From NCBI GenBank assembly GCA_964618145.1, contig CAZTZR010000007.1, positions 2,010 through 66,009 of the forward strand: a stretch of DNA of 64,000 nt, in the 5' to 3' direction. Each line of letters begins with the position of its first letter. The first letter of the stretch is position 1. Below the pieces are notes generated by a model. It worked only from the letters and a program-made list of their open reading frames with translations. It had not been told where the DNA came from and did no database searches. Shown piece by piece: positions 22,871 to 55,086 of this stretch. The position numbers and the translations under genes were made by a program. This DNA comes from an uncultured Kofleriaceae bacterium (lineage in GTDB: Bacteria; Myxococcota_A; Polyangia; HGW-17).

Positions 22871-22883
22871 GGCTACCTCACAA

Positions 22884-25172: not shown

Positions 25173-25174
25173 GG

Positions 25175-26017: not shown

Positions 26018-26034
26018 GGTATTTTGACTCCGGC

Positions 26035-26853: not shown

Positions 26854-26981
26854 CGGGCGTCAACTCCTTTGTGCGTCGAGTGCAAAAAGACCGATATTCG
26901 ATCGAACACACCAGATCCGCGTTATCATATAGATTGGAACGTCTGGCGTCAAGGGATACTGACAGGAACAACGGTCCTTCG

Positions 26982-28835: not shown

Positions 28836-28876
28836 GAACCTGCCTGCAACTCCCGCATCGGGAGACCAGACCTGTT

Positions 28877-29884
28877 TTACTTGCACTCGAAGGTTTGGTC
28901 AACCAGGACCCGCCAGGTGGCTTCAAGAAGGGAACGCACCCCATCTTTGGTAACGGCGGAAATCACGTATACCGGACAAGGGGAAAACTCGGTGCGCAGG
29001 GATTCAATGATTTCCGGTTTTTCCAGCAGATCCGATTTGGATACCACCAGTAGTCTCGGCAGTGCGGCGAGTCGCTCGTCAAAGCGGGCCAGTTCCTTTT
29101 CCAGCATTTTCACGTCCGCAACGGGATCGGTGTCCCCGGACGGAACCTCCACCAGGTGCAAAAGCAGCCTGCAGCGTTCGAGGTGCTTGAGAAACTGGTG
29201 CCCAAGACCACGTCCTTCATGGGCACCTTCCACCAGACCGGGGATGTCGGCCATGACAAAGGTCCTGTCCGGATCCAGCGAAACCACTCCAAGATTGGGA
29301 ATGAGGGTGGTGAAGGGATAATCCGCAATGCGTGGTCTGGCAGAGGAAACCACGGAAAGAAGGGTGGATTTGCCTGCGTTGGGGAGCCCCAGAAGACCCA
29401 CATCTGCCAGAAGCCGCAGGGAGAGGCGGATGATGCGCTCCTGACCCGGGGATCCGGGTTCACATTCCTGGGGGGCCTGATTGGTGGGCGAGGCGAAGTG
29501 GATGTTTCCGAATCCACCCCGACCGCCCCGGGCCACCAGACAACGCTGGCCGTCTTCGGTGAGATCTCCCAGCAGTTCCCCCGTTTGTGCATCCGTGATG
29601 GTGGTACCTATGGGTACATGCAGGATCAGATCTTCGCCGCCTTTTCCATATTTGTCCCGTCCCTGCCCGTGTTCTCCCCGCTGGGCCTGGTACCTGCGCT
29701 TGTACCTGAAATCCATGAGCGTGTGTGCACGACTGGTTGCTTCCAGAAAAACCGAACCGCCGTTGCCGCCGTCTCCTCCCGAAGGCCCTCCCCGGGGAAC
29801 GAATTTTTCCCGGCGGAATGCACGGCATCCATCGCCACCGTTTCCGGCGCTGACTTCAATCACGGCTTCGTCAATGAATTTCAT
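28877..29884 (-). CDS. obg: GTPase Obg/CgtA.
   Basis: Obg-fold N-terminus MKFIDEAVIEVSAGNGGDGCRAFRREKFVPRGGPSGGDGGNGG. G-domain motifs GLPNAGKST and DIPG. Confidence 0.95.
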   Translation of the reverse strand: MKFIDEAVIEVSAGNGGDGCRAFRREKFVPRGGPSGGDGGNGGSVFLEATSRAHTLMDFRYKRRYQAQRGEHGQGRDKYGKGGEDLILHVPIGTTITDAQTGELLGDLTEDGQRCLVARGGRGGFGNIHFASPTNQAPQECEPGSPGQERIIRLSLRLLADVGLLGLPNAGKSTLLSVVSSARPRIADYPFTTLIPNLGVVSLDPDRTFVMADIPGLVEGAHEGRGLGHQFLKHLERCRLLLHLVEVPSGDTDPVADVKMLEKELARFDERLAALPRLLVVSKSDLLEKPEIIESLRTEFSPCPVYVISAVTKDGVRSLLEATWRVLVDQTFECK

Positions 29885-34686: not shown

Positions 34687-34696
34687 GGTGTTACCT

Positions 34697-37600
34697 CTAT
34701 TTCTCCGAAACCACGGTGATCTGGTTTCCCGCAATCTGCAGGGTGATCTGTTTTTTGCCCTTTTCAAATGTCACGGCCTTTTTGAACAGGGTTTCCCCAT
34801 CGGTGCCTTCCTGCAGGATGATCAGGATCTCGGCTTCCAGGGGACGCAAACTGTCGGCATCGGCCCTTTCGACCCTGAGAAACACGGAAGAGGGAAGTTT
34901 GGCCATGACCGCCGCCTGCAGGCCGAAAGCGGGCCTGACAAAGGGAACCCGGCCAAGGTCTTCCAGAGAAGGTCCCCAAAGGAACTCCAGATCGGCCTTG
35001 GGATGTTTGTGGGTGAGCAGGATCTTCACCGCCTCGTCATCCCGGAACAGGGCCATCATGCGGCCGCGGTTCAGGATGGTCTGGCGGATGGCGGTGGCGG
35101 CATCCATCCGCATGCGTGCCAGGAACAGGCAGCCGAAAAACCGGGCCAGTTTCACCGGGTCGCTTCCCGGATCTCCGGATGTCAGGATTTCCTCCACCAG
35201 ACCGAGGGACTTTTCGAACTCCCCGGTATCCTCATAGGCATCGGCCAGGTACAACCGGGCTTCGATACTGTTCTGCACCAGCGCGGAGTAGGAAAGGAAC
35301 TCCCGCACGGCAAGTTCCTTCCAGCCGAAGGCACGGTACAACTGTCCCAGCATGCGACGTCGTCCCGGGTTGCTGGGGGCGAATTCGACGATTTCCGACA
35401 GAAGGCGCCTGGCCCGTACGTTGTCATCACGGCGCAGGGCATATTCCACGGCTTCCAGTCGCAATTCGTCGTCCAGAAGCGGGTTTCCGAACAACCTCTG
35501 CACCAGTTCGTCCGCACGGGTGAACATGGATTCGGTTTCGAAAATCCGCAGCAATCGCATGGTGAGCCACGGGTCTTCGGGACTCGCCAGCCGCAGTTTC
35601 TGCAGGATGGCCATGCGCTCGGATGCATTGGTCGCCTTTTCCAGCATTTCCTCGATCTTGACGCGTTCCAGCGTGGTTCCCAGTCCCAGGTGGCGACGCA
35701 CATACAGGATGTCCTCCACCTTGGTGATCCGGGCCAGTATGGCGGTGCGCAGCAGGTCGGAAAAACCGTGCTCCGGCACAAAGAGTTTGTAGAATTCCAC
35801 CATCACCTGGATGGTGGGCATGACGGAAACCGCACTTCGCAGGAACAGCATCCGGGCATGGGCGGTGGGTGCCTCGCATTGCCGGATGGCATCCTGGAAC
35901 AATTCCATGACCCGCCAGGGATTGGCGCCGGCCAGGCGTTCACGCCAGCCACCCACACGCTGCCACAGGGGCAGTTTCGAGAGGGCCGAACAGGGGCTGG
36001 GCTGCCGGGAGATGGAACAGTCATGGCAGATGATGAGGGTATTTTCCGCCAGTTTTGTCAACTCGGAGGCATTGGACTGGAACAACGACAGTCCACTGAT
36101 GTCGGAATCCGGGGCAGAGCGATAACCATCCAGACCCCTTTGGGCCGGGGTTTGCCGGCCCCCTTCCTTTTCACGGGCCCCACGGGGGTCTTCCCTCCGC
36201 TGGCGGCCAGACGTCCGGTCACTGCCCTCGATGCCTGTTCCACCGGCGAACGGCCGGGCTTCACCAGTGACAACCGGTTGGTCCCGGGATTTTTCCGGGG
36301 TTATGGCCCTTGGACGTCCGGGTCTGGCAGGTCGTGGAGGGGGAACTGGAGCAGGGGCGGAACCGGGGGCCTGGGGCACACTGGTGGTTGGCATGGGTTC
36401 CGGGGCCGGGGCACTGAAGGAAGGTGCGGAATCCGCGGATAACTGCATTGCCCCGAATGTTTTCAGGGTTCTGGTGTCACGGGGTCCCCTTTCTGCTGGT
36501 GCTTCGGCGACTTCCTCCCTTTTCAGCCTGTCACCCTTTGCCTCTTCCATCTCCGCGGCGTCTTCCTGATCCTGCAGTTTCTCGTCATCCAGGGCGGCTT
36601 CGGCAGCGGTGGGAACATACAGCGAGGTGAACGGTGTCACCAGTTCATACCGGAGCCCCAGATCCAGCAGTTCCTCGGGGGATGCGTTGTCCTGGATATA
36701 CTGGAGAAGCCGGTGATAGGCCCAGCGGCGTGGCAGTTCCTTTCCCTGGGTGAAGCGACCCCAACTCACGGGAAAGGAGCGTTCCCAGGGCTGTCCGTCC
36801 AGTTGGCCCCGCAATACGATCCTGGAGGGAAGTTGCGTGGTGGAGGCGTGGCCGACCACCACGAGGTCCTCCCCGGGTTGTACGGTAAACCGTCCGCGGG
36901 GGTATGGTTGCAACAAGGCTGCCCGGTCGAAGTCAACCTCGGCATTCCGCAGTTGCGGTCGTCTCAACTGGTTCATCCAGGGGGAAAGCAGCCGCAGGTC
37001 TCCGGGTTCGGTGACCTTCAGGGGGGGGACGTCCCCGGCCAGACGGGTCAGGATGTCCAGTCCCGGACCATCGGCAATGGCCACGGCGCGAAAGGCCACA
37101 AATACGGGAAGTTCCGCCCAGGTGCGGGCGATGAGATCCGCATCCAGTATCCCGACGGTGGGCACTCCATTGCCAACATACAAGAGCACCGGCGAGGTTC
37201 CCGGAATGAATTCGGAGAAGACGCCCGCGGCTTCCTCCAGCAGACCGGAGAGATCGGTGGCGCCTCCTTTCTTCTGGCTGGACAGGTGTTCCAGAAGGGG
37301 GACGGGGTCCTCCTGTCCGATGGTGACAAAGGCATTGGCCTTGCGCAGGGAGGTGTCCCCTGAAACAATGGTCACCTTGTCCCCCGGTTGCAGGGAGGCC
37401 ATGAGATTTTCCACCAGGGATCTGGACATCTGGAACTGGGCAGGCGTGGTGTCGGCGCTGACATCCACCAGGATGGCCAGATGCAGTTTCCTGGACAGTT
37501 CCTCCGCGGTTGTGAAGGGACGCAGACGGATCATGGCGTGATCTCCCCGCTGGACAGAGGGCCTGTCACGGCCGGCCGGCCGGTCGTACCAGCCCAGGGC

Positions 37601-38899
37601 CTGTTGCGGATTCAATCCGTCATCCAGGAGTTCCACATGCAGATCCGAAGTGGTCTGGAAATCCGAGGCGCTCTTGCGAAGACGTTCGCCTTCCACGAAA
37701 AGGCCGAGGTTGGCCCTGAAAGTTCTGGCGCCTGCATCCTTGAGTTGCACGGTTAGCGAAAATTCACCGATTTCGGGGGACAGCCCATCGGCTCCCAGCA
37801 TGGGAAGCGAATACATGCGGCGGTCGCGGCCTTCCCCCATGCGGGACAGCCATGTGGTGTAGCGGATGAAGACCTTGCGCCGGGAACCTCCGGGGATCGG
37901 GTAGATCGAAGCGCGGTAGCGGCCTTCCTCCTCCCATTCCAGAAGCGCGGGGTCTTCACGGGATCCTGCATAGACATGGCTTTCGTACTGGGTTCTGGCC
38001 ATTTCCTTGCCCTTGATCTTGCCGAAAACCATGCGTCCGTCCCGGTCCACAGCGAAGCCGGTGACCAGGGCGTGTTCCGGGGCGCCGAAGCGGTAGATGC
38101 CTTCCAGGGTGTTGCGGGTGGGGTTCAGGAACTCCTGGGTCACCTCCGTGACGGCGAGATCCCCCAGAATGCGTACATTCACATCCATTGAAGTGATGAC
38201 AAGCGGGATGTGAGCCTTGCCCAGATCGCCGGGGTTGCGGGCTCCCAGAACCCCTTGTCCGGGGACCAGATCCATGCCGGGTTCGGGTTTGAATTCCAGT
38301 CCGCCGGCAGTGCTCTGCCACCAGCGCAAAGGCTGGATGCGCTGAACCGCATCCTGTCCGGTTGCCTGGGCGTCATTGCCAGAATGGCCGTGACCCAGCC
38401 GCAACAGGTGACCGGCCTTGACGAGATGGCGGCTGCCGTCCAGGACGGCCAGGATTTCGCCGGAGATCACCCGGAGAACGGGTTCCTGATCATCGGCGAT
38501 TTCCACAATGGCATCCTGCCCGCGGATACTCCATTCCTTCCAGGAGAAATCTGCCGCGATTCCTGCGGGAAATTCCACCCATACGCTTCCGTCGGATACC
38601 GCCGGATGGCGTTCCTGCACGAGGCTGGCGTTGGGCAGAAGGTGAATGCGGACTCCATTTTCGTGGGTGACCAGGGCGAATCCCTCTCCGGTGGAAAGTT
38701 TGTCACCGGGGGAGAGCAATGTCCTTCCGGAAAGGGGTCTGGAGTTCGTCAGGCACTGGCCACGAATGCACTCAGCATGGGCCACGGAGGGGACGTAATC
38801 CTCCGTCCGATCCTTTTCGGGAGGACTTTTATCACAATGTATCAACAGAAAAATGCCGGTAAACAGAAGGACAAAATGGAATGGCCGGAATGGATGCAT
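34697..38899 (-). CDS. Giant exported lipoprotein (~1400 aa). It has the FecR-like, VIT and VWA domains, then a Pro-rich linker and a C-terminal TPR region. It is a paralog of 30667..34686.
   Basis: Start MHPFRPFHFVLLFTGIFLLIHCD (lipobox). VIT-like: FGKIKGKEMARTQYES. VWA: LAILVDVSADTTPAQF...GGATDLSGLLEEAA. Pro-rich linker: PAPEPMPTTSVPQAPGSAPAPVPPPRPARPGRP. 10-nt gap to the downstream paralog. Confidence 0.75.
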   Translation of the reverse strand: MHPFRPFHFVLLFTGIFLLIHCDKSPPEKDRTEDYVPSVAHAECIRGQCLTNSRPLSGRTLLSPGDKLSTGEGFALVTHENGVRIHLLPNASLVQERHPAVSDGSVWVEFPAGIAADFSWKEWSIRGQDAIVEIADDQEPVLRVISGEILAVLDGSRHLVKAGHLLRLGHGHSGNDAQATGQDAVQRIQPLRWWQSTAGGLEFKPEPGMDLVPGQGVLGARNPGDLGKAHIPLVITSMDVNVRILGDLAVTEVTQEFLNPTRNTLEGIYRFGAPEHALVTGFAVDRDGRMVFGKIKGKEMARTQYESHVYAGSREDPALLEWEEEGRYRASIYPIPGGSRRKVFIRYTTWLSRMGEGRDRRMYSLPMLGADGLSPEIGEFSLTVQLKDAGARTFRANLGLFVEGERLRKSASDFQTTSDLHVELLDDGLNPQQALGWYDRPAGRDRPSVQRGDHAMIRLRPFTTAEELSRKLHLAILVDVSADTTPAQFQMSRSLVENLMASLQPGDKVTIVSGDTSLRKANAFVTIGQEDPVPLLEHLSSQKKGGATDLSGLLEEAAGVFSEFIPGTSPVLLYVGNGVPTVGILDADLIARTWAELPVFVAFRAVAIADGPGLDILTRLAGDVPPLKVTEPGDLRLLSPWMNQLRRPQLRNAEVDFDRAALLQPYPRGRFTVQPGEDLVVVGHASTTQLPSRIVLRGQLDGQPWERSFPVSWGRFTQGKELPRRWAYHRLLQYIQDNASPEELLDLGLRYELVTPFTSLYVPTAAEAALDDEKLQDQEDAAEMEEAKGDRLKREEVAEAPAERGPRDTRTLKTFGAMQLSADSAPSFSAPAPEPMPTTSVPQAPGSAPAPVPPPRPARPGRPRAITPEKSRDQPVVTGEARPFAGGTGIEGSDRTSGRQRREDPRGAREKEGGRQTPAQRGLDGYRSAPDSDISGLSLFQSNASELTKLAENTLIICHDCSISRQPSPCSALSKLPLWQRVGGWRERLAGANPWRVMELFQDAIRQCEAPTAHARMLFLRSAVSVMPTIQVMVEFYKLFVPEHGFSDLLRTAILARITKVEDILYVRRHLGLGTTLERVKIEEMLEKATNASERMAILQKLRLASPEDPWLTMRLLRIFETESMFTRADELVQRLFGNPLLDDELRLEAVEYALRRDDNVRARRLLSEIVEFAPSNPGRRRMLGQLYRAFGWKELAVREFLSYSALVQNSIEARLYLADAYEDTGEFEKSLGLVEEILTSGDPGSDPVKLARFFGCLFLARMRMDAATAIRQTILNRGRMMALFRDDEAVKILLTHKHPKADLEFLWGPSLEDLGRVPFVRPAFGLQAAVMAKLPSSVFLRVERADADSLRPLEAEILIILQEGTDGETLFKKAVTFEKGKKQITLQIAGNQITVVSEK

Positions 38900-39875: not shown

Positions 39876-39951
39876 GCGGGATTAACTCAGTTGGCAGAGT
39901 GTCAGCTTCCCAAGCTGAATGTCGCGGGTTCGAATCCCGTATCCCGCTCCA
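39876..39951 (+). tRNA. tRNA-Gly (anticodon CCC).
   Basis: Manual fold. The acceptor GCGGGAT pairs with ATCCCGC. The D-arm is CTCA/AGAG with loop GTTGGC. The anticodon stem TCAGC/GCTGA encloses loop TTCCCAA (anticodon CCC). The T-arm GCGGG-TTCGAAT-CCCGT is followed by discriminator T and an encoded CCA. Confidence 0.9.
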
Positions 39952-43001: not shown

Positions 43002-43979
43002 TCAGAAATCCCACCCGAACTGGATGGACCAGGTCTGCTGAAGGACACTTTTGTCCTTGATGGCTTGTTTGCGTCCGGAAATGGGTTCAAAGACGGAGTC
43101 GCTGGAACCGCCGGCCAGGGTGAAGACGCCTTCCAGTGTGATCACCATCTTGTAGTAAATGAAGCGGGCGCCCAGGAAAATGCGGTGTCTTGCAATGACG
43201 TCCTGGTCATCGAACACGATGTTGTTGTCGCAGTCCGGATGGATACAGGTGAGGCCGGGCCCGAACACCGTACTGCCGTCGGGGTTGAGGGAATCCACTC
43301 CCGGTGTCACGTCGACCACCTTGCTGTCACTGAAAATCATCAGGTAATTGTATCCAAGGTAGGGTGTGACATTGAGTGTGCCGGCAACCCCGAAGCTTTT
43401 TGACAGGCTCAAATCCACGCTGGCGATGGTGAGATCCACCTGATCCGAACCCATGACCCGGGCCCCGAATCCGCGCACGGCAATGGCGGGGATGGGGAAG
43501 TCGAAATACCCCTCGTTGATGGAGAACTTTCCGGACACGTGCGGTGCGAACAGGTGACTTTCCGTCAGGTATTTCACCCCACCGCTGATTTCAAAGCCGG
43601 GCAGGGGAAACCACATGCCCTTGCGGACTTCCATGCCGATGGTCTGGACAAAACCGGCGGGTGTGCCATGAACCCCGTTTTTCCAGTAGTCCGCAGAGCC
43701 GTTGATGGTGGTGATCCCGTAATGGGCGCCGATGGCCATGCCCATGTACCCGACGGTCTCTGCCGGGGCCAGAAAGGATGGCCCGAAGGCTACTCCCATT
43801 TCGGAAACCAGGTTGCGATAGGCACTGGTGCGGTCGGTGAGGGCCTGGAAAGGATCCGGATTGTTGTAGGAATTGTGGAGTCTGGCCAGGTCAATGTCGT
43901 ATCGGTAATCCCTGGCGGAAACAGGATGATTCACAAGGAAAGCAAAAAGCATGAAGGTAAACAGGCAGGTGGTTTTCAT
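43002..43979 (-). CDS. Outer-membrane beta-barrel protein.
   Basis: Signal peptide MKTTCLFTFMLFAFLVNHPVSA. Amphipathic beta-strand pattern. C-terminal ...QFGWDF ending in Phe. Confidence 0.55.
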   Translation of the reverse strand: MKTTCLFTFMLFAFLVNHPVSARDYRYDIDLARLHNSYNNPDPFQALTDRTSAYRNLVSEMGVAFGPSFLAPAETVGYMGMAIGAHYGITTINGSADYWKNGVHGTPAGFVQTIGMEVRKGMWFPLPGFEISGGVKYLTESHLFAPHVSGKFSINEGYFDFPIPAIAVRGFGARVMGSDQVDLTIASVDLSLSKSFGVAGTLNVTPYLGYNYLMIFSDSKVVDVTPGVDSLNPDGSTVFGPGLTCIHPDCDNNIVFDDQDVIARHRIFLGARFIYYKMVITLEGVFTLAGGSSDSVFEPISGRKQAIKDKSVLQQTWSIQFGWDF

Positions 43980-44041
43980 GGAAATCCTCAGGAATGCCAC
44001 AACTTCCGGAAGGCTAGCAGGAACTGGCCTGTGAATCAAGG

Positions 44042-45258: not shown

Positions 45259-45834
45259 ATGAGTGAGGATCTCGGCATGGACAGGAAAAAGAAGTTGATC
45301 GTGTTTTTGTGTATCGCCGGAATCGGATTCATTCTGGACATGGGATCCAAACTGTGGGCCCAGAATGCGTTGACCCAGGATTACCTGGATCCTTCGAAGG
45401 TCAGTCCCTTCACCTTCCGGTTGACTCTGGCTTTCAACCACGGAGCCGCTTTCGGTTTTTTGTCCGATGTGGCCAGCGGCCGGTGGATACTCATTATTGT
45501 GGGTACACTGGCGATGTATTTCATTTACTACCTTTATAAAAGACCCGAGTCGAACCACAGGCTGTATCTGGTTGGTCTGGCCCTGGTGGCGGGCGGAGCC
45601 ATGGGCAACCTGGTGGATCGCATCATTTTCGGCCGGGTCACGGATTTTGTGCAGATGTGGCTTTTTCCCTCCATCCGGATCACGTGGCCCTGGCCGACCT
45701 ACAATGTGGCGGATGTCCTGCTTCTGGGGGGCGTCGGTTGCCTGTTGATCTTTTCGTTTCTCCCTGAAGGACGGAACATGGCGGGCAAGGGGGACTCCCC
45801 GACTCCGAAAAAATCCGGGGCTCCACGGAAATAG
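45259..45834 (+). CDS. lspA: Lipoprotein signal peptidase II.
   Basis: LspA motifs FNHGAAFGF, NLVDRIIFGRVTDFV and NVADVLL are present across 4 TM helices. Start at MSEDLGMDRKKK (45259). Confidence 0.85.
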   Translation: MSEDLGMDRKKKLIVFLCIAGIGFILDMGSKLWAQNALTQDYLDPSKVSPFTFRLTLAFNHGAAFGFLSDVASGRWILIIVGTLAMYFIYYLYKRPESNHRLYLVGLALVAGGAMGNLVDRIIFGRVTDFVQMWLFPSIRITWPWPTYNVADVLLLGGVGCLLIFSFLPEGRNMAGKGDSPTPKKSGAPRK

Positions 45835-45837
45835 TTC

Positions 45838-47046
45838 ATGTACATATCCGCCTTTACCCATCGGGAGCAACTGTTCGACATCGCCAAGCGCTGGCTTGAA
45901 GACAAACTGGAGCCTGACGATGCCTGGTTGATGACGGAAATCTTCACTTACGAAGGGTTTGTCAGCACTCCCATGGTGAAGCAGTTTCTCATGGGGTTCC
46001 TGCGGGATCTGCACGGGAGGGAAATCACTTCACGGGGCGTGACGATGAAGCATCAGGTCAAGGAAGCCGTGACACGCAACCTTCCCTTCATTGATGACCG
46101 CATCGAGTTTCTAGTGCGCATGTACCATTCCCGTCCCGAAGAGTATTTCCCCCGGGCTCCCATCAACGGACTTTTGTTTTTCGCCGGAGAAACGAATCCG
46201 CATCTGGTGTCCATGCTGCGGATCAAGCGTGCCCGCCGGGTGGCGGAAAAGGTCAGCCGGCGCATGGCGGATATGATCCTGACCCACATCCGTCGCAAGG
46301 CGGACATTCTGGCAAGGGAACGTGCCGAACGCCTGGGGGTTCCCCTGGAAATGCTGCTGACCCCCCCCGAACAGATGGTCACCGAGTTCGAGGCAGCCGA
46401 GCGGCAACTGGCCGAGCAGGTCATGAGCGGGAAAATTCCTTTCAACAAGGACGACCTGGCGGTGCCGGACATCATCGGTGTCAAAATCATCGGAAACGAG
46501 GAAACGCTGGCCCGGGCGGAAAAACTGCTGGCCGAACACCCGGACGTGACGTTGGTGGAGCGGGAAACCCACCAGGGTGATTACAATGCGGTCAACCTCC
46601 AGTTTGATCTCCATCTCCCGGAACCGGGAGTGATCATCGACAGCGTGTCCTCAAGCATCGTGACCCCGTTCCCTGCAACCCGGGGCATATCCCCCGAGGA
46701 ATTGCAGGAAGGATTTGCCGCATACGTCGAATCCGGCGAACGCACCGTGCGGGTCGAACTGATTCTCACCAATTATCAGGAACTCGTGGAATCGGAGATC
46801 GGACGATCCATTCACGAGATGCGGACACTCAAGCAGCGATCCCAGCGGGAATATACGGGGCGTATAGCCAAAAATGCAGAATTCATCGTGGAATACATGC
46901 TTTCCGTGGCCTTTTCCCCGCAGATCGAGATCCATTTCATCCCCATCAAGCTCAACGGTCATTACCTTCCTGAAACGGTTTCCTACGCAATACGCCGGTT
47001 ATTCGGAATTGAGGAAAGCGCAATTTTCACGAATTTATCCTTGTAA
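45838..47046 (+). CDS. Hypothetical cytoplasmic protein (402 aa) with a possible RelA/SpoT-like (alarmone-synthetase-type) nucleotidyltransferase core.
   Basis: DIIGVKIIGNEE resembles the D-x-x-G-x-R-hhh motif, and HQGDYNAVNLQFDL resembles the G-Y-x-S-x-H motif. They are preceded by an R/K-rich helix (ILTHIRRKADILARERA). This is a weak, motif-level resemblance only. Confidence 0.45.
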   Translation: MYISAFTHREQLFDIAKRWLEDKLEPDDAWLMTEIFTYEGFVSTPMVKQFLMGFLRDLHGREITSRGVTMKHQVKEAVTRNLPFIDDRIEFLVRMYHSRPEEYFPRAPINGLLFFAGETNPHLVSMLRIKRARRVAEKVSRRMADMILTHIRRKADILARERAERLGVPLEMLLTPPEQMVTEFEAAERQLAEQVMSGKIPFNKDDLAVPDIIGVKIIGNEETLARAEKLLAEHPDVTLVERETHQGDYNAVNLQFDLHLPEPGVIIDSVSSSIVTPFPATRGISPEELQEGFAAYVESGERTVRVELILTNYQELVESEIGRSIHEMRTLKQRSQREYTGRIAKNAEFIVEYMLSVAFSPQIEIHFIPIKLNGHYLPETVSYAIRRLFGIEESAIFTNLSL

Positions 47047-47180
47047 AACAAGTGTTTTTCATTCAAACGCACACAGGGTGAAACTTTTTGCTTGCGGGCA
47101 AAAGGCCTCTGTATATATATTCCCCATGTCTATGGTATGGGCATCTGTTGCCGTTTGCGCCGTTGGCAAGGAGAAACACG

Positions 47181-48968
47181 ATGGTGAAATTCCGTTGGAA
47201 ATCGTTGATGTTCATTGCGTCCATTCTGACCGTGACCGTGGCTTTGCCCGCTTTTGCCCAGCGCAAAAAGGCAAAGACAGCGGAACCGGAAGAAGAGGAA
47301 ATGATCTTCGAAGCCGAAGATGTATCCAAAACCCTTGTTTCCAAGAAAATGGTGCGGGGTGAGGACTTCCTCAAAAAGGCTGAACGCGGAATGGCCCAGA
47401 GCGCTCCCCAGGAGCAGATTCTGGTTTATCTCCAGAGTTCCACCATCTACCTGAAGCAGGTTCTGGAAAAGGACAACCGCGAGGACTCCTTCGATACCAA
47501 GCAGAAGGCGCAGTACCTCATGGGAAAATGCCTGTATTATCTCGGGTATTACTCTGCCTCCAAAAACTACTTTGAACGCATTGTGGATCAGGGGGATGCC
47601 CACCCCTACTACAAGATGACCCTGAAATACCTGGTATCCTTGCAGCAGAAAATGCCCGAATCCGCAGGCATTCTGCCCCAGATCGGCAAATACAGCGAGG
47701 AGTATCTGGAAGACAAGGAACTGGCCAATTTCCGTTCCCAGTTGCTGTACTACCTTGGCCGCTACCATTACGTGGACGGGCGCCTGGAGAAGGCCGCCGA
47801 GATGTTCGCGAAGGTGGCGCCGAGCACCCGGACCGCAGAGGGCGGGTACTACCTGAAGAGCAAGGTGTTCGAAGGCATTACCATGGTGCGCCTCGGCAAG
47901 CCGGTGGACGCCATCAAACGCTTCAACTCCATCATCATTTTTGCCCAGAAGAATCCTACGTTCCCGGAAATCGGGGACTATCTGGAACTGGCCAACCTTT
48001 CGCTGGCCCGTGTGTACTACCAGGCCGGCCGTGTTGCCATCGGCGCCTTCGCGCAGACCCGCAAGGGCAATTTCGCGAAACTCGCGGAAAAATACCTGAC
48101 ACTTTCCATTGCCTTTTTCGAAAAGGTTCCCCAGAACAGCCACAACTGGCTGCAGAGCCTGTTTGAACAGTCCTGGGCCTACTTCATCCTGGATGCCATG
48201 CTCCGCCCGCACTTCAAGAAAGACTACGGCGGCTTCCAGAAGGCACTCGGAAACATCCACACACTCAATGCTCCCTTCTTCGAGAACTTTTTCTTCCCGG
48301 AATCACTGATCCTCCGGGCAGTCATCTATTTCCAGAACTGCCGCATCAACGAGGCGAACGAAGCCCTCGCCGAATTCGGTCGCGTATATCCCAAAATGCA
48401 ACTGGAGGTTCGCGAGGTTTCCGACAAGCACAAGATGGATGACGACGATGATGATCAGGCGTATTTCAAGTATGTCCAGAACATCCTTGCCGACAAGGCC
48501 GGTCTGAATCCCCGCCTGTCCCGCCTGGTGAAGAGTGCCCTTCGGGACCGCACCTTCGAGCGCCGCATCGAGTTCATTGACGAACTGAACCGGGAAATCA
48601 AACAGGTCAACGCCTCGGACCGCAGTTGGGCCAGTTCCGACATCGCCCGCGAAATCCGCGAGGATCTGGAGTTCCAGAAAATCAACGCCGAAACCGAAGC
48701 TGGAAAACTGGCCCGTGACCGCATCCGCCGTCTGGATGATGAACTCACCCGCCTGGTTCTCCAGTATGGTGACGTGAAGATCGAACTGAACAACCTGCGT
48801 CTGCGTCGTGTGACCGCCCGGGCCAAGGCATCCCAGACCACCAAGGTGGATGTCATGAACGTGGTTGTCGATGACGAACATGTGATCTGGCCGTTCACCG
48901 GCGAATACTGGCAGGACGAACTGGGATACTACCGTTTCATCGTTCGTTCCACCTGTGGCAGCAACTGA
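47181..48968 (+). CDS. Exported TPR-repeat protein (595 aa) with an internal poly-Asp run.
   Basis: Signal peptide MVKFRWKSLMFIASILTVTVALPAFAQ. Multiple TPR-like helical hairpins (YYLGYYSASKNYFERIV..., LARVYYQAGR...). HKMDDDDDDQAYF. C-terminal coiled-coil. Confidence 0.7.
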   Translation: MVKFRWKSLMFIASILTVTVALPAFAQRKKAKTAEPEEEEMIFEAEDVSKTLVSKKMVRGEDFLKKAERGMAQSAPQEQILVYLQSSTIYLKQVLEKDNREDSFDTKQKAQYLMGKCLYYLGYYSASKNYFERIVDQGDAHPYYKMTLKYLVSLQQKMPESAGILPQIGKYSEEYLEDKELANFRSQLLYYLGRYHYVDGRLEKAAEMFAKVAPSTRTAEGGYYLKSKVFEGITMVRLGKPVDAIKRFNSIIIFAQKNPTFPEIGDYLELANLSLARVYYQAGRVAIGAFAQTRKGNFAKLAEKYLTLSIAFFEKVPQNSHNWLQSLFEQSWAYFILDAMLRPHFKKDYGGFQKALGNIHTLNAPFFENFFFPESLILRAVIYFQNCRINEANEALAEFGRVYPKMQLEVREVSDKHKMDDDDDDQAYFKYVQNILADKAGLNPRLSRLVKSALRDRTFERRIEFIDELNREIKQVNASDRSWASSDIAREIREDLEFQKINAETEAGKLARDRIRRLDDELTRLVLQYGDVKIELNNLRLRRVTARAKASQTTKVDVMNVVVDDEHVIWPFTGEYWQDELGYYRFIVRSTCGSN

Positions 48969-49033
48969 ACCGTGTCAATGTATTGTACCCATCCGGGTTT
49001 TTATTCCTTCCACCAATTTGATCGAGGAACGCC

Positions 49034-52000
49034 ATGAGGAAATTCTGTCTTTGGATCGTACCCGTGATGTTGATTGGTCTTCCGGCGGTGGTTTTCGCAC
49101 AGAAAACCGATGCCAAGCGGGACATCAAGCATCGTGAGGACAAATCACTTGAAGTCTCCAAGGATGAACTGATTGCCAAGGCAAAAAAAGAGCAGGAGGC
49201 TGGTCAGGCCAGCATCAAGTATGAAGATTTCGTCGGGAACGTGAAACGATCCCAGAATCTGAAACTGCCCATCCTGCAACAGCAGGAACAGCAATTGAAG
49301 CGGCAGTTGCAGATCATGCGCAAGGATGACCGGCGCCGTGTGGAATACCTGTTCCGGCTGGCCGACATCTACGTGCAGTACGAGCAGATCTACAAGTTCC
49401 GTTTTGGTGAGAGTGTCGAAGCCCTGGGAAACGCCAAGACCGCCGCTGACAAGAAGCGACTGGAAAAGGCCCGCAACGACAACGCCCGGCTCCAGAAAAA
49501 ATATCTGGAACTCGCGCTCAAGGAACTCAACGACATTACGGTCACCAAGGCGTTTGCGGACTGGGGCCGCATGGACGAGGTCCTGTTCAAACTCGGGGAC
49601 ATCGCCCGTGAACTGGGTTACCAGGACATCATGCAGGAAAAGTTCCGCAAACTGTTGCGTGAACATCCGCAGTCCAATTTCATCCCCAACGTGCATCTGG
49701 CCTTCGCGGAATTCTACTTCCGCCAGGGGAGAGCCGGCTTGAAACTGGCCACGGAATACTATTCCAAGGTTGTTCATAACCCCAAGTCCAAGGGGACCAA
49801 TATTTATTTTTACGCCCGTCGCATGCTCGGCTGGTGCTTCTTCAACCTACAGGATTTCGTGCGTGCCCAGAGCGAGTTCCTTTTCGTGGCGCAAAATGCC
49901 AAGCAGGAAACCCTCAAGCGGCAGACCCGCCGGGAAGTCGTCATGGCCTATTCCATGCGCGGCAACAAGGAACAGGCGTTCAACTTCTTCCAGCACCAAC
50001 TGGGTGCGGAACATGTACGTGACCTGTATCTCATGCTGGCCCGGGAATACTTCACCCAGGGCAACATGCCCAACATGATCTGGATTTATGACGACCTTCT
50101 CAAGCGGTTTCCCCAGGATGTCCAGCGTTGCGAATGGCTCCGGGAAATCTATCTGGGTTACCGCCTGGAACAGAATACGGACCGGATCGCCGATACCCTG
50201 GAAAGGATCGTCCTGAGCATGGGGGAACTGCAGAAGCAGCATGGCGAAAAGAAAATGGAAGTCATGGTCTGTACGGACTTCACAAAACGGGCCCTGTATG
50301 ACCAGGCCAAGCGCTGGTACATCCAGTACGACCGTGCCAAGAACCGCGCAGCCGAGAACGTGGAGCAACTGCTCAATGCGGCGGCCCGCATGTATCGGCG
50401 GTTTCTGGAATTCTTCCCCAACGACGACGATGCCTACGACATGCGGTACGACTATGCCCAGTTGCTAGGCGACATGGCAGAGAACCTGGAGCGTGTCAGC
50501 CGTGGCAAAAACGAACAGGCGGTGCGCGAAGCCCATCGTACGGCGGCCCGGGAATACACCCAACTTCTCCGCTGGGACCGGTTGCCCCCCAATCTGACCC
50601 AGCAGCAGTTCGAGAAAAACCGCGAGGACATCGGTCTGGCCACGGTATCCCATTACCTTCGGGTGCTCAATGTCGACTTCGAGCGGGAAAACAAGGTTCG
50701 CCAGAAGCGGGCCGACGATTACCTGCGTCGCCGTAACTGCCTGGCTGCCAAGCAGAAGACCGAGGCCGCCGGCAAGAAGTTCACCCGGAAGTGCCCGGAA
50801 TTTGAAAAGAACCTGCCCATTCCGCCCGAGTTGAAGGAAGTCATCGACGTATTCAATCTTTATGTCGAGTACGTCAAGACAGGCAAGATTCTCGCCACCA
50901 TCAAATACAACCGTGCGATGATCTTTTACATGTACCGCAACTTCAACGAGGCCATTCCCCTGTTCCAGGACACCATCCGGACCGTCCATGCTGACGACCC
51001 CGAGACAGCCCTGCAGGCGGCCTTGTACCTCATGATTGCCTACGACGCCGAAGACCGGTTCGAAGACATGGTGGACATGATCACCGAACTTCTGAAGCCG
51101 GAATTCAACAAAATGTTCAATTTCAATGCCGAATCCAAGAAGTTCCGCGCCACCCTGGAAGCCAGGAAGCTGGAGAACATGGAAAACGAAGTGGCCAAGC
51201 GCGGCGAGGAAGGCCGTTACCGCGAAGCCGGCGAGATGCTTCTGGGAATGGCCCGGGAGTTCACCTCCGATACCAAGAAAGTCATCCAGTACTACACTTC
51301 GGCTTCCGTGGCCTTCGAGAAGGCGGGCATGGTGGGACAAGCCATCACCGCGCTCAATGAACTGCGCAACAAATTCGGAGATGGAGCCACCCGCAATGAT
51401 CCGCAGGTGATCAATTCCTACATCCGTTCGGGACAATTGTTCGAGCAGATCGCCATTTTCGAGGCGGCCGCCGCCCGGTATGACGAGTTTTTCAATCGCT
51501 ATCCCCGGGATCCCGATGCCGTACGCGCCGCCCGTCGTGCGGTACAGCTGACCTGGTGGTCCGGCGACCTCAAGGCTGCCGAGAAAAAAGCCCAGGAATA
51601 CATTGAGCGGTTATACAAGATGGGCGCCCAGCAATTCCGCGGTGACGTGTCCTACCTGTACTTCATGCTGCACCAGTTCCACGAGGATCGTCGGGATCGC
51701 AGTGGACGTGCCACCGGTACAAACATGGTCATGCACTACCTGAACCGGTACATTGACACCATGGGCCGCAACCAGGTGGATGACCTCATGATCCGTGTTC
51801 TGGCCAAGCAGGGCAAGATCAACTGGGATCAGTCCTGTCCGGTTCCCACGCGTTACGGTATCTGCATGAGCATTTATTATGTGGAGAGGCGTTCCGCCAC
51901 CGACAAGTGGAAAGTCGCCCAGGTGCGGTTTGAACGTCGGGATCGCTCCAAGGTCCGTGCGGCAGTCCAGAAGTTCGAGGACGCCATCAAGGTATACAAC

Positions 52001-52651
52001 CGTTGGAGCAAGACACAGACCATCCATGGGGCACTGGATGGTGCGGACCGGGTGGCCCGTATCAACGAAGCCCTTGACGCCGTGGCACTGGCCAAGTTCC
52101 ATCTGGCTGAGGCTTCCTATGAAGAAGTCATCTCCATGGATCTGCCCGAGTTGACCATGCGGTCCAAGAAGGATCAGGAACAGTCCATGAAGGCCATCCT
52201 GAAGTGGATTGAAACCCAGACCCGATTGATTGAACGCAACAAGAAACTGTACGAAGAGGCTGCTTCCCTGATGCTGGGTCGCCGTCACAACAGTTGGTAC
52301 ATTCCGGCCGCCGGCCGGTTTGGCGCCATCTACAAGAACTTCGTGACACGGATGAAGGGCATGCGCTTTGGCGATGAAATCGAAAAGAACATCGAACTGA
52401 AACTGGAAATCCAGGACATGTTCGCCCGTTCCTACGAAAAGATGGAGGATATCGCCAAGCAGGGCTTTGAAGCATGCGTCAAAAGCGCCCAGCGTGCTGG
52501 CCGATATGACGAATGGTTCGAATTCTGTGAAAACGAATTGGCCGAAATGAGGCGTTCCGTTTCTCCGGTGTCTGACGAAGTCTGGGGAGAAGCGGAATTC
52601 AAGGATTTGAAACCATCCACTTCCACCGTGGTTCCGCTTCCGGTCCGCTAG
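49034..52651 (+). CDS. Giant exported TPR/coiled-coil protein (1205 aa).
   Basis: Signal peptide MRKFCLWIVPVMLIGLPAVVFAQ. TPR-like units run throughout (YLFRLADIYVQYEQ, FAEFYFRQGRAGLKLATEYYSKV, and others). Confidence 0.75.
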   Translation: MRKFCLWIVPVMLIGLPAVVFAQKTDAKRDIKHREDKSLEVSKDELIAKAKKEQEAGQASIKYEDFVGNVKRSQNLKLPILQQQEQQLKRQLQIMRKDDRRRVEYLFRLADIYVQYEQIYKFRFGESVEALGNAKTAADKKRLEKARNDNARLQKKYLELALKELNDITVTKAFADWGRMDEVLFKLGDIARELGYQDIMQEKFRKLLREHPQSNFIPNVHLAFAEFYFRQGRAGLKLATEYYSKVVHNPKSKGTNIYFYARRMLGWCFFNLQDFVRAQSEFLFVAQNAKQETLKRQTRREVVMAYSMRGNKEQAFNFFQHQLGAEHVRDLYLMLAREYFTQGNMPNMIWIYDDLLKRFPQDVQRCEWLREIYLGYRLEQNTDRIADTLERIVLSMGELQKQHGEKKMEVMVCTDFTKRALYDQAKRWYIQYDRAKNRAAENVEQLLNAAARMYRRFLEFFPNDDDAYDMRYDYAQLLGDMAENLERVSRGKNEQAVREAHRTAAREYTQLLRWDRLPPNLTQQQFEKNREDIGLATVSHYLRVLNVDFERENKVRQKRADDYLRRRNCLAAKQKTEAAGKKFTRKCPEFEKNLPIPPELKEVIDVFNLYVEYVKTGKILATIKYNRAMIFYMYRNFNEAIPLFQDTIRTVHADDPETALQAALYLMIAYDAEDRFEDMVDMITELLKPEFNKMFNFNAESKKFRATLEARKLENMENEVAKRGEEGRYREAGEMLLGMAREFTSDTKKVIQYYTSASVAFEKAGMVGQAITALNELRNKFGDGATRNDPQVINSYIRSGQLFEQIAIFEAAAARYDEFFNRYPRDPDAVRAARRAVQLTWWSGDLKAAEKKAQEYIERLYKMGAQQFRGDVSYLYFMLHQFHEDRRDRSGRATGTNMVMHYLNRYIDTMGRNQVDDLMIRVLAKQGKINWDQSCPVPTRYGICMSIYYVERRSATDKWKVAQVRFERRDRSKVRAAVQKFEDAIKVYNRWSKTQTIHGALDGADRVARINEALDAVALAKFHLAEASYEEVISMDLPELTMRSKKDQEQSMKAILKWIETQTRLIERNKKLYEEAASLMLGRRHNSWYIPAAGRFGAIYKNFVTRMKGMRFGDEIEKNIELKLEIQDMFARSYEKMEDIAKQGFEACVKSAQRAGRYDEWFEFCENELAEMRRSVSPVSDEVWGEAEFKDLKPSTSTVVPLPVR

Positions 52652-52671
52652 GGTAAGGTGAGGAGAAGACC

Positions 52672-54471
52672 ATGAAAACACGCAATATCATCCTGATTGT
52701 TCTTGTCACGTGGATTTTTGGCGCCTGCACCGGTGGAAAGAAGGACGAAACCACGACACCGGTGGCAGATGGGCCCGGACCCCGCACGGGGCCGCCGCCC
52801 GGATCCATTGATCCCAAGACCGGTGAAGTGGTCCCGGCTGGCGGTCCTGCCGCCGGTCCCGTGACCACTGAAGACCGGACGTTGTCCCGCAACCTGGCCA
52901 CCCGCTTCCAGGAAGTGCTCAAGAGTTTCTTTGAAGCGTCCGACAAGGGCTGGCCGAAAGCCGAATGTGAAAAGGTTGGCAAGGCCTTTTTGGCCCTCAA
53001 CAAGGAAGCCGGCGGCGAACGGATTGCCTCTTTTGCCTACAATGCAGGGGTGGCCTACAGCCGTTGCAACATGACCAAGCAGGCGAGGGAAGCCTATCAA
53101 CTGGCCTTGTCGATTGATCCGCATTTTCCTTCCGCAAAATCGGGACTTCTTTTGCTGGATCTCAAAAACCCGGAAGATTACCTGAAACATGAAGCCGATC
53201 TGATGCGGGATTCCTATGCGATGCAGGATCCGGACATCCAGTACAATCTGGCCCTTGCCTACTTCATTCAGTATTCCAGGGCCGGAAATGCCAAGGTACG
53301 TGCCCAGTTGCTCGATGCCCTGCGCAAGGCACTGGCCTCTTCGGGCAGGATTCCCAATGAAACACTTGAGGGAACCCGGATTCGTCTCAAGATTTACGGC
53401 CTCGCCATCCTGTTTTACCTGGAGGCTGATCGGCGCAAGGATGCCAATGCGAACCTGGCCCGTATTTTCATCGGCCAGGCCCGCGATTATTTCAAACCGT
53501 GCACGGGCGAGCAGGGGGTCAAGGACGTGTATGCCCGCGAAGCGCTTGCCATGTATTACAACGCGTATGGATTGTATGTCCTTAGCCAGGGAACTCTGGG
53601 TCCGGCCTTCGACGAGTTCAAGAAGGCACAGGAATGCGAACCCGAGAATCTTGCGGCGAACCTGAACATCGGTATGTTGGGGGTCAGCGTCCGCGAGCCC
53701 GAGATGGCCATCAAGGCGTTGGAACTGGTGACCACCCGCTATCCGAAAATCCCCGAAATCCGCGAGGCCGAACTGGCCCTGGCCGTGTCTTACAAGGTGT
53801 TTGCCATGACCCTGCAGGACATGTCCGAAAACCAGTTCGCCAACAAGGAACGTATCCAGATGGAAATCGATCGTTTCCGGGAAGCCATCAAACTGGGTGA
53901 AGCCCAATTGCAGGTCTACGAACAAATCATCAAGGGGGACAACGTCCGCGCCCTGATTCCGAAACTGGCCGAAATCACTGGTGGTGACGCCCGCGCCATG
54001 CAGGCCCAGTTGGACAAGGGGGATGTGACCGTCAAGATGATTCAGGATGACGTGGCCCGTGTCCAGCCGCGTATTGCCACCGCAGTACGCGATGTGCTTC
54101 CCGCGAGAATCAAGGAAAAAGAAGAGGAACTGGCCCGTCTTGAAGACGCCAACAAACTGCGTGCCGAGGCGCGTGGATTTTTTGAAAAGTCCCGTACCCA
54201 GTACGAGAAAACCCTGGCAGCCATTCCGAACGATTACCGGGTGGCGTTCAATCTTGCCATGTTGTACTACAAGGCCGGAGATCTGCTTGGGGATCTGACG
54301 GGCAATTACAAAAAGGCGCAGGATCTGTTTGACCGCGTATTCAAAAACAAACAAACACCGAAGCAGTACAAGGACTTTGCTGAAAAGCACAGTTCTGACA
54401 TTCGGTCCGCGCTGGTTCGTCTGAAGGAAATCGAAGACGAAAAGAAAAAAGCCCCTGAAGCCCCCAAATAA
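52672..54471 (+). CDS. TPR-repeat lipoprotein (599 aa).
   Basis: Lipobox LVTWIFGACTGG. Pro/Gly linker, then TPR units (YNAGVAYSRCNMTKQAREAYQLALSIDP, YNLALAYFIQY, FNLAMLYYKAGD). Confidence 0.75.
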   Translation: MKTRNIILIVLVTWIFGACTGGKKDETTTPVADGPGPRTGPPPGSIDPKTGEVVPAGGPAAGPVTTEDRTLSRNLATRFQEVLKSFFEASDKGWPKAECEKVGKAFLALNKEAGGERIASFAYNAGVAYSRCNMTKQAREAYQLALSIDPHFPSAKSGLLLLDLKNPEDYLKHEADLMRDSYAMQDPDIQYNLALAYFIQYSRAGNAKVRAQLLDALRKALASSGRIPNETLEGTRIRLKIYGLAILFYLEADRRKDANANLARIFIGQARDYFKPCTGEQGVKDVYAREALAMYYNAYGLYVLSQGTLGPAFDEFKKAQECEPENLAANLNIGMLGVSVREPEMAIKALELVTTRYPKIPEIREAELALAVSYKVFAMTLQDMSENQFANKERIQMEIDRFREAIKLGEAQLQVYEQIIKGDNVRALIPKLAEITGGDARAMQAQLDKGDVTVKMIQDDVARVQPRIATAVRDVLPARIKEKEEELARLEDANKLRAEARGFFEKSRTQYEKTLAAIPNDYRVAFNLAMLYYKAGDLLGDLTGNYKKAQDLFDRVFKNKQTPKQYKDFAEKHSSDIRSALVRLKEIEDEKKKAPEAPK

Positions 54472-54549
54472 ATCGGGTTTCATCCCCAAAACACTTTCAT
54501 GGAAAAGTCTGTTTGCGTATACTCCCACTCCGAAAGGGAGAGTTGCCGG

Positions 54550-55086
54550 ATGAGTCTTGAGTCTGCTTCCCTGTTGAGAAACATGTTTTTGTCCCGGAAA
54601 ATCAGAAGATGGCGCTATGCCACGGTGGGGTGGCTGGTCGGGGTTGTTCTGGTCGGCACATGGATGCCGACCCCCGCCGGGGCGACCGATGATGACGGTA
54701 GAAAAGCCATGGAAGAAATTCTGGATATTTCCAGAAACTGGACCGTCGAGGAAACCCGGGGAACCATTCAGTACAAATTGAATCTGACACTGAATGGAAA
54801 TACGGAAGGAATTCTGGGAGAACTTGCCGGTGAGGGCACCGTGCAGGTCAAGGACAAGCAGGTTCGAATCACCATGACCGCCCAGTTGACACAGGGGCGG
54901 TATACGTATGTCACGCGCTATCCTGCCTTGATTTTTACGTTCACCGGAAGAATCCGGTCTTCAGATCCCTCCGTTTTTCCAGTCAAGGAAACCATTTCCC
55001 AGCAGGAAACCCTTCTGCTGAAGGACGGCAGGCTTTGTCCGCTGTCCGTGCGGCAGAATCCCACCTGCATGCAACCCGTGAAATGA
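54550..55086 (+). CDS. Small secreted protein. Function unknown.
   Basis: N-terminal hydrophobic segment ATVGWLVGVVLVGTWMPTPAGA. The start is uncertain (54550 or 54583). Confidence 0.4.
   Translation: MSLESASLLRNMFLSRKIRRWRYATVGWLVGVVLVGTWMPTPAGATDDDGRKAMEEILDISRNWTVEETRGTIQYKLNLTLNGNTEGILGELAGEGTVQVKDKQVRITMTAQLTQGRYTYVTRYPALIFTFTGRIRSSDPSVFPVKETISQQETLLLKDGRLCPLSVRQNPTCMQPVK

Follow-up and report, generated by a model that had tools for sequence, protein, structure and literature searches.

A diverged gltC-gltD-gltE-like gene unit in an uncultured Kofleriaceae bacterium

The stretch of DNA analysed here (the window; 64,000 nt of contig CAZTZR010000007.1, from an uncultured Kofleriaceae bacterium) carries three consecutive genes for large exported tetratricopeptide repeat (TPR) proteins, for which homology to GltC, GltD and GltE of the Agl-Glt gliding machinery, in the classical gene order, was shown at the level of sequence. 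The trio belongs to a separate, deeply diverged clade, termed “class II” in the following, which is found only in uncultured Polyangia-type metagenome-assembled genomes (MAGs). The region 47181-54471 is likely to represent a diverged, self-contained gltC-gltD-gltE unit that would provide the periplasmic scaffold of a Tol-like machine of the Agl-Glt/Nfs class. An earlier note, made from the sequence alone, had described three exported TPR proteins of 595, 1205 and 599 amino acids (aa) together with a 178-aa open reading frame (ORF), and had pointed to a resemblance of the three to Glt/Nfs components in architecture only. The ORFs, their lengths, export signals and TPR content were verified, and the likeness goes beyond architecture, extending to homology with GltC, GltD and GltE and to classical gene order. 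This first reading is substantially right on the three TPR proteins, and wrong or unsupported on the extras that it attached to them. The three large proteins sum to 2,399 aa, gene lengths are the same in independent calls on overlapping public contigs, and each of the three has Pfam TPR matches (TPR_2, 5e-9; TPR_14, 2e-9; TPR_8, 2e-7). The first gene starts with an ATG located 7 nt after a GGAG ribosome-binding site (47170-47173).

The GltC-like protein matches the NCBIfam model gliding_GltC (NF033756) with 246 bits (E 8.5e-73), residues 106-593 aligning with positions 151-619 of the 622 of the profile, and is 38% identical (E 5e-116) to the gltC-position protein of a locus with the full C-D-E-F-G order. 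The equivalog cut-off of NF033756, i.e. the level at which the same function is assumed, is set at 450 bits, and is passed only by the protein of a Myxococcales-type locus (605 bits). GltC proteins of bona fide Polyangia C-D-E-F-G loci also score below it (298-375 bits), and the 246 bits of the GltC-like protein are in the range of these proteins.

For GltD (AgmU), for which there is no curated model, a Myxococcus anchor locus (L009, Myxococcus sp. CA040A) was reached by searching with one distant homologue. The successive genes of this locus encode proteins of 1193, 489, 90, 654, 210, 566 and 4091 aa, of which the second passes the NCBIfam GltE cut-off (749 vs 225 bits) and the fourth the GltG cut-off (1069 vs 650 bits), so that the 1193-aa protein can be taken as GltD. 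BLASTP aligns the 1205-aa window protein with this GltD (P0165) at 24.7% identity over 854 aa (144 bits). The N-termini of the two proteins are collinear, with a signal peptide (read from the sequence in the GltD-like protein) followed by DKSL... and (I/L)(K/Q)Y(E/D)(D/Q)F. A YbgF-like stretch (TIGR02795) occurs at the same relative position in both, the two stretches being collinear: residues 684-790 of Myxococcus GltD match at 108 bits, above the YbgF cut-off of 90.1, and residues 718-835 of the GltD-like protein match at 27.6 bits. Database homologues of the GltD-like protein at E <= 1e-3 (n=55) are all long, between 853 and 1562 aa with a majority at 1100-1300 aa, and the stronger matches mostly span more than 90% of the query. 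They fall into a close clade of 50-76% identity and, after a sharp gap, proteins of 21-29% identity. Judged from these alignments, the 1205-aa protein is an exported, collinear and near full-length homologue of GltD.

The third protein is not matched by the NCBIfam GltE model NF033758 (cut-off 225 bits), with which another member of the clade (L005) reaches 27 bits, class I GltE of Polyangia 91-112 bits and GltE of Myxococcus 749 bits. Homology is nevertheless apparent at the profile level, class I and class II GltE alignments matching at E 4e-25 to 6e-28 in hhalign, collinearly from the lipobox onwards. The lipobox cysteine is kept in 12/12 class II and 11/11 class I proteins at this position. 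A stepwise connection also exists, since the GltE-like protein matches the GltE-position protein of the classical locus L002 (E 6e-17), which itself matches Myxococcus GltE (E 1e-19). Among 1.84 billion cluster representatives searched with phmmer, the best relatives of the GltE-like protein outside the clade are mostly 400-550 aa long. An NCBIfam scan of the top matches proved non-discriminating, with generic TPR families as frequent as GltE, and was replaced by a local scan with a class I GltE hidden Markov model (HMM) in which coverage and lipobox were recorded. Proteins of this size class match the HMM from one end to the other, and a lipobox is present in many. Class II proteins are longer (581-626 aa, compared to 434-530 aa in typical class I GltE), the GltE-like protein of the window exceeding classical GltE by about 110-130 aa. 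On this evidence, the 599-aa protein is a TPR lipoprotein and a GltE homologue, encoded directly after gltD.

Repeat proteins are prone to spurious similarity, and the trio could in principle consist of generic TPR envelope proteins of the BamD, YbgF/CpoB, LapB, PilW or YfgM type, unrelated to Glt and in coincidental order. Indeed, the Pfam matches of the trio are to generic TPR families only, and weak NCBIfam matches to YbgF, PilW, LapB, NlpI and Tgl were observed. However, the latter amount to 14-37 bits, far below the respective cut-offs (13.5-27.6 bits vs cut-offs of 90-363 for the YbgF, LapB, PilW and NlpI scores of window proteins), and no match of window proteins to the BamD model TIGR03302 was reported in the NCBIfam scan. 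Class I and class II alignments were built for each of the C, D and E positions, and all pairs were compared by hhalign. Like-for-like comparisons gave E 2e-110 and a score of 823 over 499 columns for GltC, E 1.6e-80 and 675 over 1003 columns for GltD, and E 4e-25 and 197 over 309 columns for GltE, whereas cross-family controls did not exceed 90, or 41.5 where a class II profile was involved. These relationships are therefore family-specific rather than a matter of generic TPR likeness. The profile-profile comparison proposed in the earlier note as a check thus returned family-specific matches at all three positions, and the clustering with BamD/YfgM/LapB-like families that the note had named as a possible outcome is contradicted by the GltC model, by BLASTP to GltD, by synteny with classical Glt loci and by hhalign. 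A generic origin of the trio is hardly credible.

The distribution of the class II unit was assessed by scanning one genome per species (185,579 species) with a GltD alignment of the clade only. This yielded 23 loci, all in Myxococcota MAGs and none in a cultured strain, with labels that include Deltaproteobacteria HGW-17 and HGW-22, Haliangium, Kofleriaceae, Polyangia and Polyangiaceae. MAGs from groundwater, mines, saline sites and springs are the sole source of the lineage so far; PHAZ01, DYGK01, JAHITJ01, JAFGWM01 (GCA_016937155.1), JAWLEA01 and JAQICJ01 are among those with the module. When reference proteins were mapped to all loci, the class II trio was found in the same order in 15 further loci of other assemblies, so that the arrangement is not due to chance. 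Class II proteins are at most 25% identical to classical GltD, and a rough neighbour-joining tree places them on one long branch next to Polyangia-type GltD and apart from Myxococcus GltD. The trio is under purifying selection: its ratios of non-synonymous to synonymous substitution (dN/dS, 0.11-0.17, with dS saturated) are like those of lspA and yebC.

Locus architecture separates the two classes clearly. The order C-D-E is shared with the classical loci L002, L023, L024, L026-L028, L030, L033 and L034, and L006 has a D-E-F-G run without gltC. In all 13 classical loci, gltF and gltG directly follow gltE, often with gltH and gltI as well, whereas in class II the unit consists of gltC-gltD-gltE alone wherever the downstream sequence can be read (12 of 12 loci). 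In L002, L033 and L034, the GltC-like protein and the GltD homologue are followed by proteins of about 450-530 aa (with TPR Pfam matches in L002 and L033), 76-93 aa and 700-750 aa (with an FHA domain on record in L002 and L034), and a TPR giant of about 3900 aa is encoded one or two genes further in L002 and L033. This order matches that of the G1 cluster of Myxococcus xanthus, which encodes GltD (1191 aa), GltE (471 aa), GltF (89 aa), GltG (640 aa, FHA + TonB), GltH (209 aa) and GltI (4132 aa) (PMC3169522, Table 1). TPR giants of 3700-3900 aa were noted in three loci, i.e. L002 (19916-23471, + strand), L033 (18830-23525, + strand) and the class II locus L008 (15068-15579, - strand). The latter, a protein of 3721 aa of which the locus holds only the C-terminal end, lies about 9.5 kb from gltE and is comparable to GltI in size. 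As a separate observation, in the more distant class II subclade of 50-55% identity (L004, L005 and L008) a conserved 412-418-aa protein encoded on the - strand (15522-16760 in L005) converges on gltE. This protein is unrelated to the 402-aa protein encoded upstream of the window trio, and its L005 copy has a weak match to MshEN, a cyclic di-GMP-binding domain.

By analogy with an AlphaFold-based model of the M. xanthus complex, in which GltG transmits force from AglRQS (PMC11761067), the trio would form, in the periplasm, the scaffold of a Tol-like machine of the envelope that is driven by the proton motive force and has its energising parts encoded elsewhere. The GltD-like protein would be the elongated central pillar; the GltE-like lipoprotein would bind its C-terminal part and tether it to a membrane; and the GltC-like protein would link the pillar to outer-membrane partners (PMC11761067). 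Following the same model (PMC11761067), force would be delivered by a TolQR/AglRQS-type channel through a TonB-C/TolA-like transducer, and genes for both would have to lie elsewhere in the genome. The output of such a machine may be other than gliding, which is not implied by the trio.

Several points weigh against this proposal. The 599-aa protein gave no match at E <= 10 to the NCBIfam GltE model, and the GltC-like score lies below the equivalog cut-off, so that identical function cannot be assumed. Most window ORFs with coding-like codon usage and the Pfam-annotated called genes in the 5 kb beyond the downstream end were scanned, and no MotA/ExbB, ExbD, TonB-C, GltG, GltF, GltH or OMP_myx_plus was found among them. 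There is no gltG, gltF, aglRQS or GltA/B/H-type barrel in the 47 kb upstream or 14 kb downstream of the module, nor within 10 kb of it in 12 related loci. In the M. xanthus model, two-thirds of GltD are wrapped by GltG (PMC11761067). It would thus be unexpected for a GltD to lack a partner of the GltG kind, and the coupling of the trio to a motor is something we only infer. Moreover, most genes specific to A-motility were reported to be missing in uncultured anaerobic Polyangia from one comparable habitat, Zodletone (bioRxiv 10.1101/2021.07.06.451402); the MAGs of that study differ from those carrying the module, and provide context only.

The earlier note had recommended looking for motor genes and outer-membrane barrels elsewhere in the genome. 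As neither these nor a transducer gene were detected within the 64 kb of the window or the 5 kb that follow it on the downstream side, a motility function cannot be claimed. GltF is recognisable as an exported protein of about 80-150 aa encoded after gltE, with a conserved C-terminal S/NLIR[IV]R-E-F region. Neither a search for the motif in six frames nor tblastn with two GltF proteins as queries revealed one, be it in the window or in the class II loci. GltC is known to bind the outer-membrane beta-barrels GltA and GltB of the G2 cluster. An OMP_myx_plus (GltA-like) barrel is encoded upstream of gltC in the classical loci L030, L027 and L028, and none in the window. Two types of window proteins were considered as partners and rejected. 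FHA proteins encoded at 20315-24296 (- strand) match GltG through the FHA domain alone (36 bits), and have neither TonB-C nor an AgmX/PglI tail. A 345-aa exported protein without family match (43002-44039, - strand), conserved in the closest relatives L010, L012 and L018 and ending in ...QFGWDF like an outer-membrane beta-barrel, matched neither OMP_myx_plus nor GltH nor a GltA-like protein, and was not retained as a GltA/B/H-type barrel. The larger FHA protein (851 aa, 20315-22870, - strand) is of GltG-like topology, with the FHA domain, a transmembrane helix (305-334) and a periplasmic helical/TPR region; it features Pro/Gly/Met-rich repeats in addition to lacking the TonB-C/AgmX-PglI tail. 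It belongs to a Tad-pilus gene neighbourhood (20315-28886, - strand) in which two bitopic FHA proteins, of 851 and 470 aa, are encoded beside TadB/TadC-like proteins (two T2SSF domains), CpaB/RcpC and a Ser/Thr kinase.

The missing partners may be viewed in two further ways. On the one hand, the trio could be part of a complete machine for adventurous gliding or Nfs-like surface transport, with aglRQS, gltG, gltF, gltA/B/H/K and an adhesin gene scattered in the genome, as parts are over G1, G2 and M1 in M. xanthus. Glt genes are indeed dispersed in Myxococcales and Bdellovibrionales (PMC3169522), aglRQS is not adjacent in the fetched classical loci either, and L008 encodes, about 9.5 kb from the module, a TPR giant whose size recalls GltI. 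Against this, gltF and gltG follow gltE in 13 classical loci and never in 12 of class II, the GltC and GltE scores are both under the NCBIfam equivalog cut-offs, and the lineage is known from MAGs of groundwater, mine, saline and spring habitats only. A complete machine of this kind appears unlikely.

On the other hand, as gltF and gltG are consistently lost from the unit, there is room for a variant which is independent of a motor or dependent on Tol-Pal, i.e. an envelope scaffold derived by reduction from the Glt core and no longer making use of GltG or GltF. In such a scaffold, the YbgF/CpoB-like stretch of the GltD-like protein might, for example, provide the contact with TolA, and the function might lie in division or in keeping the envelope intact. 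The retention of this stretch, which scores well in Myxococcus GltD, and the presence of a promoter-like block of the unit's own are in line with this possibility, but the YbgF-like score in the window protein is far below the cut-off, and no Tol-Pal genes are found nearby. We regard this alternative as rather improbable too. A broader formulation, still doubtful in our eyes, would be that class II gltCDE is a self-sufficient scaffold without GltF and GltG in non-gliding Polyangia of largely anoxic habitats, either plugged into Tol-Pal or motor-free. If true, this would reveal what the Glt core complex does apart from motility, a point unexplained since 2011.

A scaffold for a machine of the Agl-Glt/Nfs class remains the reading that we favour for the trio. 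To our knowledge, no focal-adhesion and surface-transport systems of bacteria other than Agl-Glt and Nfs have been studied well. As a unit of three proteins under purifying selection and with its own promoter-like block, class II gltCDE offers a natural minimal version of the scaffold, which could reveal which contacts (C-D, D-E) are autonomous, and how the scaffold acts without motility add-ons. Its value is comparative more than surprising, since known families are involved and genes for the missing partners may just lie elsewhere in the genome.

The promoter-like block is located within the 134 nt that separate gltC from the 402-aa gene, and is made up of a T-tract, a -35-like CTTGCGG (47092-47097), a spacer of about 16 nt, TATATA (47114-47119) and a conserved leader, and is nearly invariant in 7 related loci despite saturated synonymous sites. 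The T-tract/CTTG.../TATAT pattern is recognisable even in the distant class II loci L005, L008, L016, L017, L020 and L021. A scan for consensus promoters and terminators gave nothing above shuffle expectation in the cluster, and did not call the block because its -35 element is weak. From this conservation we infer that gltCDE is driven by its own promoter.

Table 1. Genes and promoter-like block of the gltCDE region (positions in the window)
Feature	Position	Strand	Remarks
lspA (signal peptidase II)	45277-45834	+	Peptidase_A8 E 1.9e-32; TIGR00077 match
402-aa cytoplasmic protein, uncharacterised family	45838-47046	+	Starts 3 nt after lspA; without hydrophobic segment or signal peptide
Promoter-like block upstream of gltC-like gene	47085-47145	+	Conserved across loci; putative promoter
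gltC-like, 595-aa exported TPR protein	47181-48968	+	Signal of the signal-peptidase-I type, ...ALPAFA/QRKK
gltD-like, 1205-aa exported helical/TPR protein	49034-52651	+	Signal peptide ...AVVFA/QKTD
gltE-like, 599-aa TPR lipoprotein	52672-54471	+	Lipobox IFGA-C
178-aa protein, hydrophobic N-terminus	54550-55086	+	Independent gene callers also give 178 aa

The genes flanking the trio (Table 1) are neighbours and not members of the module. The suggestion of a periplasmic scaffold set thus holds for the TPR trio, with lspA and the genes for the 402-aa and 178-aa proteins outside the conserved module. Placement after lspA, which had been considered thematically coherent, is confined to the closest relatives: lspA adjoins the module only in the subclade of 72-85% identity (L007, L010, L012, L013, L018 and L022), and it is not next to it in L004, L005 and L014, upstream sequence being unavailable for L008. 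In the 50-55% subclade, holB and PSP1 are found upstream of gltC, and unrelated genes downstream. The 178-aa gene is present between gltE and yebC only in L010, L011, L012 and L018 (55-59% identity); neither L007 nor the 50-55% subclade has it. Its product had no family match in Pfam, NCBIfam and PDB sequence searches and no BLAST similarity to GltF of three class I loci, and its identification with GltF was discarded given this lack of similarity and its lineage-specific occurrence.

The 402-aa protein, for which a nucleotidyltransferase function had been considered possible, has no Pfam, NCBIfam or PDB sequence match, and could be assigned to no family by any sequence method. Its 111 homologues of about 400 aa occur in several phyla, including Myxococcota, Krumholzibacteriota, Syntrophobacteraceae, Nitrospiraceae, Desulfotignum and Xanthomonadales. 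The AlphaFold2 model of the protein (pLDDT 89) has RelP, RelQ and CapRel as its top Foldseek matches in the PDB, with probabilities of 0.82-1.0 and E-values of 1.8e-4 to 1.6e-2, and template modelling scores of only 0.17-0.42. This weak resemblance in predicted fold leaves a nucleotidyltransferase-like or alarmone-synthetase-like activity as a weakly supported lead; the family could be an undescribed one of RelA/SpoT-like enzymes.

A single functional operon for lipoprotein processing and export, extending from lspA through the 402-aa gene and the trio to the 178-aa gene, is nevertheless conceivable at first sight: the genes are co-directional and tightly packed (lspA and the 402-aa gene are only 3 nt apart), the gaps between them contain no terminator-like site on the + strand, and the GltE-like protein is itself a lipoprotein. 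Such an operon is very unlikely, however, since the genes adjoin each other in the closest relatives only, many phyla have the 402-aa family but no gltCDE (in MAG JAFGWM01, which has both, they are on separate contigs), and a conserved promoter-like block lies in the gap before gltC.

The cluster had also been described as richer in AT than its surroundings. The dip in GC content is real, yet small (0.536-0.568 across 44-56 kb vs 0.576-0.587 just downstream). On the 3′ side, the cluster is followed by yebC, ruvCAB, mreBCD and the genes for PBP2 and rodA, and nothing related to Glt was found where the contig was followed 3′ of rodA. Elsewhere in the window, a FliH-like protein (weak PF02108) and a FliI/EscN-type ATPase (PF00006 + T3SS_ATPase_C) are encoded in succession at 16203-18216 (+ strand). 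No further flagellar or type III secretion genes were seen near this pair, which may be a remnant or a partial type III export module. Two adjacent exported giants are encoded at 30667-38899 (- strand), of 1366 aa (FecR, VIT, vWA) and 1400 aa (VIT, C-terminal TPR), and may be adhesin-like or BatA-like. The only RNA gene found in the window with Rfam and ARAGORN is a tRNA-Gly(CCC) (39876-39951, + strand).

Compared with the Agl-Glt system of M. xanthus, the window trio represents the same three families as GltC (AgnA), GltD (AgmU) and GltE (AglT), with the same sizes and export types: GltC is an exported TPR protein of about 600-670 aa, GltD an exported helical/TPR protein of about 1200 aa with a YbgF-like stretch, and GltE a TPR lipoprotein encoded directly after gltD. 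Unlike in M. xanthus, gltE is not followed by gltF-gltG-gltH-gltI, gltC is not preceded by gltK-gltB-gltA, and the host belongs to an uncultured lineage that is not known to glide. Outside the clade, the trio is most closely related to class I loci of Polyangia and Kofleriaceae (L002, L023, L024, L033 and L034), which share the C-D-E order, with identities of 36-38% for GltC and about 25% for GltD. These loci continue with a GltF-type protein of 76-93 aa, a GltG with FHA and TonB-C domains and often a GltI-like protein of about 3900 aa, whereas the clade of the window stops after gltE. YbgF/CpoB is a periplasmic TPR protein accessory to Tol-Pal which binds a TolA-type transducer. The GltD-like protein shares with it the weak YbgF-like stretch, and differs from it by a tenfold size difference and the lack of a tol-pal gene context.

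The ancestral core complex has been defined as aglR, aglQ, aglS, gltC, gltD, gltE and gltG (PMC3169522). The window has its three TPR parts, i.e. 3/7 core genes together, unlike Gammaproteobacteria, Fibrobacter and Geobacter, in which the core forms one cluster that includes the motor and gltG (PMC3169522). The function of this core outside gliding myxobacteria is unknown, and it is insufficient for motility (PMC3169522). In the Nfs spore-coat system of M. xanthus, nfsC-nfsD-nfsE, paralogues of gltC-gltD-gltE, are likewise contiguous and in the same order; they are part of an eight-gene cluster, nfsA-H, with the A/B barrels upstream and F-H downstream (PMC3858216). None of these flank the window trio, which is preceded by lspA and the 402-aa gene and followed by the 178-aa gene and yebC. 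Set beside these systems, the trio is a new and reduced form of a known machinery, carried by an uncultured lineage and built from families that are themselves known.

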